Assembly: GCF_988242995.1 (NCBI RefSeq)
Contig: NZ_OZ547043.1
Direction: 5' to 3' (one strand)
Length of the DNA: 64,000 bases
Shown: positions 36,982-37,335 of the stretch, piece after piece
Layout of the letters: the number at the start of each line of letters is the position of its first letter
Numbering within the stretch: the first letter of the stretch is position 1
Notes under the pieces: generated by a model
The model's input: the letters and a program-made list of their open reading frames with translations, nothing else
The model's database searches: none
What the model was told of the DNA's origin: nothing
Translations under genes and position numbers: made by a program

Positions 36982-37335
36982 ATTGTTCAGTCTCTTATTA
37001 TCTTTATATGCTTGATATACTTAAGGTTGTAATAAGCAAAAGAGGACTGAACTGTAAAATATAGGCGTTATACTTTACAGCAACAGTACGCCGCTAACGC
37101 AATTGCTACCTCTGGCATAACAAGTATATCGGGTAAGGGTTTCTGTTCCGCACACGCAGGCGCAGAGTATCGTTAAGATATCCATATTGTTGTTTTAGGC
37201 CCGCTAGTAATGCGCTACGGGTATTTAATATTGTTAAACCCTGATAATCGCTCCGGTTATTTCCGGGATAAATGTACTACCGCAGTTACTATCATAGCCC
37301 CGACAATAAAACTTGCCGGGGCTTTTTTGACGCTA

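Follow-up and report, generated by a model that had tools for sequence, protein, structure and literature searches.

The glcB–glcA junction and its stem-loop

At the glc locus, the window (the whole 64,000-nt stretch of DNA analysed here) is E. coli DNA almost identical to that of K-12 MG1655, and window position x corresponds locally to NC_000913.3 position x + 3084298. Two minus-strand genes flank the region of interest. These are glcB, encoding malate synthase G (723 aa; 37336–39507; assigned from the list of open reading frames, identity to MG1655 and the RefSeq annotation), and glcA, encoding the 560-aa glycolate permease (35299–36981; MG1655 identity and RefSeq annotation), which is the last gene of glcDEFGBA. 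The glcB frame closes with TAA (37338–37336) followed by an in-frame TAG, and 354 nt separate the genes (36982–37335), with two differences from MG1655, neither of them in the hairpin that the spacer contains. The literature treats glcDEFGBA as a single operon. Co-induction of glcA was reported at 18-fold, alongside 8–23-fold for glcD, glcF, glcG and glcB, so that its fold-induction equals or exceeds that of glcB, and its overexpression is toxic, nearly abolishing growth (PMC4888631). For glcA to be expressed from the operon promoter, transcription must read through the hairpin. Scanning the spacer for sigma-70-like promoters yielded none at threshold on either strand, with weak candidates only by eye; on this result a sigma-70 promoter for the candidate small RNA C0719 and an internal glcA promoter were both rejected. 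Another minus-strand hairpin, of 12 pairs, was returned by a terminator-like scan 7 nt past the glcA stop codon (35261–35291) and is the presumed operon terminator; its tail is T-poor (CATTTACATT).

The spacer hairpin is an inverted repeat whose two 11-nt arms enclose a loop of 6 nt, evident from sequence and folding on both strands (37296–37323). The plus strand at 37296–37323 reads AGCCCCGACAA-TAAAAC-TTGCCGGGGCT and then enters a T-run of six (T6, 37323–37328; same length in K-12), the first T of which (37323) pairs with A37296. On the minus strand, 12 nt separate the hairpin from the glcB stop codon (37324–37335; UAGCGUCAAAAA on the mRNA), the A-run in this stretch being the complement of the plus-strand T-run. 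The hairpin is identical in the window and in MG1655. A first-pass annotation of this DNA had described a plus-strand hairpin with a T-tract between the minus-strand genes glcB and glcA, and its sequence and coordinates were correct; it had also stated that no U-tract follows the hairpin on the minus strand, which the tail there, AUGAUAGUAAC, bears out. What this description of the strands missed is that the fold is the more stable on the minus strand, where a G·U pair takes the place of an A·C mismatch. The minus-strand RNA folds into 11 uninterrupted pairs including one G·U (−20.1 kcal/mol, z −6.0), and the plus-strand RNA into 7+3 pairs around the A·C mismatch with a loop of 6 (−14.7 kcal/mol, z −3.9), the seven G/C-rich pairs of the latter directly abutting T6–7.

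The fold energy of either strand was reached by none of 200 shuffles. Allowing up to two mismatches, the hairpin pattern occurred once in the window and was absent in 100 of 100 shuffles. A crude scan for any hairpin followed by at least T5 returned eight sites in the window, where random sequence gave 3.7 ± 1.7, so that the motif class by itself is only mildly enriched; the stronger arguments for the hairpin are therefore its conservation and the experimental 3′ ends. Taken with the folding against shuffles and its uniqueness, these (the RNA 3′ ends having been mapped in vivo and adjoining the stem) make the hairpin more than a chance occurrence. A terminator scan of the window that permitted no mismatch did not call the hairpin, because the internal A·C mismatch was disallowed, and we do not count this silence as evidence. 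We also considered a REP/BIME-type repeat and rejected it, because the window has one copy and E. coli genomes a median of one place matching the whole spacer.

RNA 3′ ends and the candidate small RNA C0719

Minus-strand RNA 3′ ends of MG1655, brought into window coordinates from a Term-seq table and a TRS table, fall at 37289–37292, 4–7 nt past the stem. Term-seq (Adams et al. 2021, PMC7815308, Supplementary file 1) places an end at NC_000913.3 3121590 on the minus strand, which is window position 37292, 4 nt 3′ of the stem. The table labels this entry “primary” relative to glcB and “antisense” relative to C0719, and the hairpin is part of the sequence printed with it (PMC7815308). It is confined to the LB OD600 2.0 sheet, which also holds strong 3′ ends inside glcD (PMC7815308), indicating that the glc operon was expressed in that condition. 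The TRS study (PMC10687069, Supplementary Data 2) gives a minus-strand terminus at 3121587–3121594, with peaks at 3121587/8, and labels it, with respect to glcB, “alternative primary in TU”. Ends here thus come from two analyses that used different kinds of library, in sequence that is identical in the window and in MG1655. The first-pass annotation had made its proposal depend on there being transcript 3′ ends at this position on one strand or the other, and ends are indeed found at 3121587–3121590 on the minus strand. Its alternative of an intra-operon attenuator or RNA processing site gains direct support from them (PMC7815308, PMC10687069).

On the plus strand, no 3′ end at NC_000913.3 31216xx occurs in the Adams 2021 table or among the TRS entries listed. 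The silence of the latter is the weaker evidence, because it holds for the TRS entries listed only; both tables are curated sets of dominant peaks, and plus-strand expression at the locus is very low. The same entries contain no 3′ end assigned to glcA, both tables listing the end after glcB. No Rho-termination region for glcB or glcA appears in an OD 0.5 Rho dataset, taken when the operon is off, and the SMRT-Cappable-seq and Cappable-seq supplements have no entry for the glcB–glcA locus.

The plus strand of the spacer carries a full-length match (1–222) to the C0719 candidate small RNA, Rfam RF00117, at 37060–37281, with 296.8 bits where the gathering score is 50. The match stops 15 nt short of the hairpin on the same strand, and the hairpin lies outside the Rfam model. 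Because of this placement, the hairpin and T-run stand where a C0719 terminator would be, and on the plus strand they show two features of a Rho-independent terminator, a G/C-rich stem-loop of the expected size (about 5–14 pairs, with a loop of 3–8 nt) and a U-tract adjoining it. We infer from sequence and position that they constitute an unannotated Rho-independent terminator of C0719. The catalogued 222-nt coordinates, which end short of the hairpin, presumably come from probe arrays; C0719, if real, would most likely be about 45 nt longer than the Rfam and EcoCyc coordinates, reaching the T-run. The first-pass annotation had offered the stopping of antisense transcription as another role, with the neighbouring plus-strand C0719 match going unrecognised. 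That proposal has the sequence on its side, with a canonical terminator 15 nt after the match, and has against it that no plus-strand end was seen among the table entries listed and no promoter-like site in the spacer scan.

C0719 is listed in sRNA surveys and has been reported from arrays and RNA-seq, with RNA-seq counts that are very low and, in transition and stationary phase, 3.5–7-fold higher. Group II intron retrohoming was reduced by a transposon insertion at the C0719 site, and overexpression of C0719 gave neither a biofilm nor a motility phenotype. The current MG1655 RefSeq record has no annotation between glcA and glcB, C0719 having been dropped from it. C0719 is thus a candidate small RNA whose existence as a transcript is weakly supported. 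Its signal rises in the same growth phases where the glc 3′ ends appear, and could reflect antisense leakage from abundant glc mRNA. The C0719 sequence is fully complementary to the glcB–glcA intercistronic RNA and the glcA leader.

Variation of the stem-loop and spacer

The spacer is present as a single copy in 4543 of 5426 complete E. coli genomes. The 883 genomes with no spacer match agree with the loss of C0719 reported in phylogroup E and some Shigella lineages (PMC3318445). Across ten sampled E. coli the stem was invariant, with one change in the loop and a T-run of 6 or 7. Five further stem/loop variants came from E. albertii and from 50 metagenomic contigs recovered by a conserved spacer anchor. 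When genera were compared by GlcB, only E. albertii was informative among the matches listed, the next relatives among them being Pseudomonas-type, with 67% identity and a different context.

The minus-strand stem was uninterrupted in all six natural variants (−16.8 to −21.1 kcal/mol), and the plus-strand stem had an internal A·C or C·A mismatch in four of the six (−14.6 to −21.6 kcal/mol). Read on the minus strand, a single pair takes three forms: G·U in E. coli, G-C in E. albertii-like sequences and A-U in contig L140. Such a series is the usual route of compensatory change, and its intermediate is a mismatch on the plus strand; an asymmetry of G·U against A·C can hint at which strand’s RNA fold is maintained. 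Two loop-proximal changes, G·U on the plus strand and A·C on the minus strand, favour the plus-strand fold. The variants are few, non-independent and derived from related events, and with these two changes pointing the opposite way, the strand argument drawn from them is a mild one. As predicted by folding, the stem changes in related lineages preserve the structure. The T-run counts 6 or 7 in E. coli and drops to 5 in E. albertii-like sequences; a single lineage (L121, L122 and L125) has 4, and there GCTATT is also tandemly duplicated in the stretch that leads from the glcB stop codon to the hairpin. The variants mildly suggest that the minus-strand fold is the constant feature and the T-run the looser one. 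The E. albertii minus-strand tail is AUUAUAGUUAC, and there is no U-tract there either.

Length polymorphism of the T-run (window 37323–37335) was recorded at loci L121, L122, L125, L002, L092 and L114. Rearrangements at the spacer were found in strains PEC408 (L090), 2013C-3277 (L091) and E300010 (hit H21). In one strain, ISKpn26 (IS5-like) replaces everything left of window position 37289, 7 nt from the hairpin, with glcB and the hairpin kept. A second has its breakpoint at 37098 beside a traT remnant and has lost glcA, again keeping glcB and the hairpin, and a third carries an IS1 insertion in the spacer region.

Proposed roles of the stem-loop on the two strands

We lean, with moderate confidence, towards a reading in which one conserved, GC-rich stem-loop serves both strands, setting and protecting the 3′ end of the glcDEFGB mRNA without efficiently stopping transcription into glcA, and acting on the plus strand as a terminator for C0719 or other antisense RNA. 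On the minus strand, the 11-bp hairpin without a U-tail would give the glcDEFGB mRNA a discrete, stable 3′ end. RNA polymerase would not be stopped efficiently there, since the downstream gene glcA is induced together with the other operon genes. For the E. coli enzyme, termination ordinarily depends on a U-tract, and the minus-strand tail AUGAUAGU is not U-rich. After the hairpin, minus-strand C/G ratios taken over 78-nt windows of the spacer are 0.6–1.6, and no marked C-rich, G-poor bubble for Rho loading stands out. The most likely mechanism would be that the hairpin blocks the 3′-to-5′ exonucleases PNPase and RNase II, which would act after the glcA-containing tail is cut or after transcription ends further downstream. 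The enzyme-coding part of the mRNA would then be expected to outlast the permease part, shifting the glcB:glcA ratio. The toxicity of overexpressed glcA offers a plausible reason for keeping permease mRNA below enzyme mRNA; if the reading is right, GlcA, toxic when overproduced, would be held under the level of the upstream enzymes of its own operon. On the plus strand, the hairpin with T6–7 would end C0719, or antisense RNA crossing the glcA leader, before it reaches glcB.

A different account of the minus-strand ends would make the hairpin a genuine leaky terminator, i.e., an intra-operon attenuator that sets a fixed glcB:glcA transcription ratio, perhaps with help from NusA/NusG or under the influence of the ribosome that terminates 12 nt upstream. 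Translation can modulate terminators placed immediately after a stop codon, and this hairpin directly follows that of glcB. The stability of the stem (−20.1 kcal/mol), the discrete 3′ end 4–7 nt past it and the lack of a glcA 3′ end among the table entries listed suit an attenuator as well, but we find one distinctly improbable, as the tail AUGAUAGU is without the U-tract normally needed for intrinsic termination. Moreover, the fold-induction of glcA, at or above that of glcB (PMC4888631), speaks against it, and protection from exonucleases is the explanation given for U-less 3′-end hairpins in E. coli (PMC6061677). The U-less hairpin together with the co-induction of glcA makes us prefer read-through, with the glcA part then degraded as far as the hairpin, to true attenuation.

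It is also conceivable, though we think unlikely, that the hairpin’s sole role is as the Rho-independent terminator of C0719 on the plus strand, the minus-strand ends being a passive by-product of the exonuclease stalling that any stable hairpin causes, without a selected role in glc expression. Neither 3′-end table has a plus-strand 3′ end among the entries listed and the spacer scan found no promoter-like site, which sits poorly with this proposal, as do the very low levels of C0719, the lack of a biofilm or motility phenotype on its overexpression and its removal from the MG1655 RefSeq annotation. The variants likewise count against it, since one lineage keeps the stem with the T-run down to T4 and an internal mismatch is tolerated on the plus strand in four of six. 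Its strengths are that canonical terminator anatomy occurs exclusively on the plus strand, that the Rfam match ends 15 nt upstream on that same strand, that arrays and RNA-seq have both reported C0719, and that the transposon insertion at the locus had a group II intron retrohoming phenotype. Conversely, the T-run might be incidental, belonging to an A-rich spacer after the stop codon, with C0719 no independent transcript and only the minus-strand hairpin of any importance. Here the missing promoter, the lack of a plus-strand 3′ end among the entries listed and the absence of C0719 from the current MG1655 annotation become points in favour, joined by a T-run length that varies from 4 to 7 and a C0719 signal that tracks glc induction. 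We nevertheless hold this to be very unlikely: a single lineage falls below five Ts, U-less protective hairpins do not characteristically have A-tracts (PMC6061677), and the half of the spacer covered by C0719 is highly conserved. Equally little credence goes to a version in which C0719 is a genuine cis-antisense RNA that is ended by the hairpin and, through its pairing or its transcription, causes the glcA part of the mRNA to be cleaved or interfered with, while the other strand of the hairpin caps and stabilises the glcDEFGB fragment. If that were true, antisense control of the permease and protection of the enzyme mRNA would be linked through one palindrome, with the conserved 170 nt of the spacer nearest glcA as the regulatory core.

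Under the two-strand reading that we prefer, the hairpin fits two known kinds of element at once, an intrinsic terminator of the small-RNA type when read on the plus strand and, when read on the minus strand, a U-less protective 3′ stem-loop. For the latter kind, Dar and Sorek (2018, PMC6061677) described precise ends just past stable stem-loops that lack U-tracts and protect against PNPase and RNase II, and linked these ends to transcripts trimmed back by the two enzymes to the protective stem-loop. The malE-malF hairpin represents the intercistronic stabiliser type (reviewed in PMC5927463). Two features of a protective 3′ stem-loop were found on the minus strand, namely a stable U-less stem-loop and a precise 3′ end downstream of it. 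As in these systems, the stable stem-loop comes right after a coding region and has a U-poor tail, the steady-state 3′ end lies precisely a few nucleotides downstream, and the element sits within an operon, ahead of a gene whose product is needed in smaller amounts. This likeness is one of structure and end position, and the involvement of Rho, exonucleases and differential decay at glcB–glcA is argued from analogy. Unlike the Dar and Sorek class, which is usually without one, the glcB–glcA stem is preceded by an A-run, and it has no clear C>G region downstream.

The plus-strand form resembles small-RNA intrinsic terminators in that a G/C-rich stem abuts T6–7, 15 nt after the body of a candidate sRNA. 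It departs from them in its internal A·C mismatch, in the poor support for the sRNA itself, and in that a promoter was not found in the spacer and a plus-strand end is not among the table entries listed. Bidirectional intrinsic terminators between convergent transcription units were reportedly described by Ju, Li and Liu in 2019. As with those, a single hairpin lies between two converging RNAs, here C0719 and the glcB mRNA, and end formation accompanies it. Unlike them, it has a U-tract on the plus strand alone, the minus strand having the A-run upstream and AUGAUAGU downstream. With a U-tract on one side only, the hairpin was rejected as a bidirectional intrinsic terminator; given this asymmetry, the two directions would work by different mechanisms.

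The hairpin is thus an ordinary, largely explained element, and it leaves the current understanding of termination and mRNA decay unchanged. Its parts are already public, in the Rfam C0719 entry and the two 3′-end tables; our literature search found no paper discussing the glcB–glcA hairpin itself. More generally, a terminator that seems to lie on the wrong strand beside a gene can mark an unannotated convergent transcript.

Apart from the hairpin, comparison showed the glcA-proximal part of the spacer (36982–37152) to be unusually conserved. E. coli and E. albertii differ at only two of the 200 nt of window positions 36953–37152, and at about four per 50 nt in the flanking glcA and glcB coding DNA. 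This conserved part could be a glcA leader, a glcA promoter or the 5′ region of C0719. It includes a perfectly conserved palindrome with 12-nt arms (37052–37080; CTGTAAAATATA / TATACTTTACAG) for which we found no known function, and which, by its sequence, resembles an RNA hairpin or a site for protein binding. When the whole spacer was folded, both strands did somewhat better than shuffles (z −3.0 vs −2.0), a result that does not separate the strands. A minus-strand ORF of 36 aa, rich in Cys (37185–37075; MDILTILCACVCGTETLTRYTCYARGSNCVSGVLLL), was rejected as coding: its variable sites are spread 7/3/5 over codon positions 1/2/3, and the lineage of L121, L122 and L125 has an internal stop. 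Elsewhere in the window, a minus-strand match to Rfam JUMPstart (RF01707) at 17324–17362 scored 53.6 bits. JUMPstart elements precede polysaccharide, haemolysin or transfer operons, and the match suggests that such a cluster lies in the window upstream of the yghJ–glc region and that the window is not K-12 throughout.
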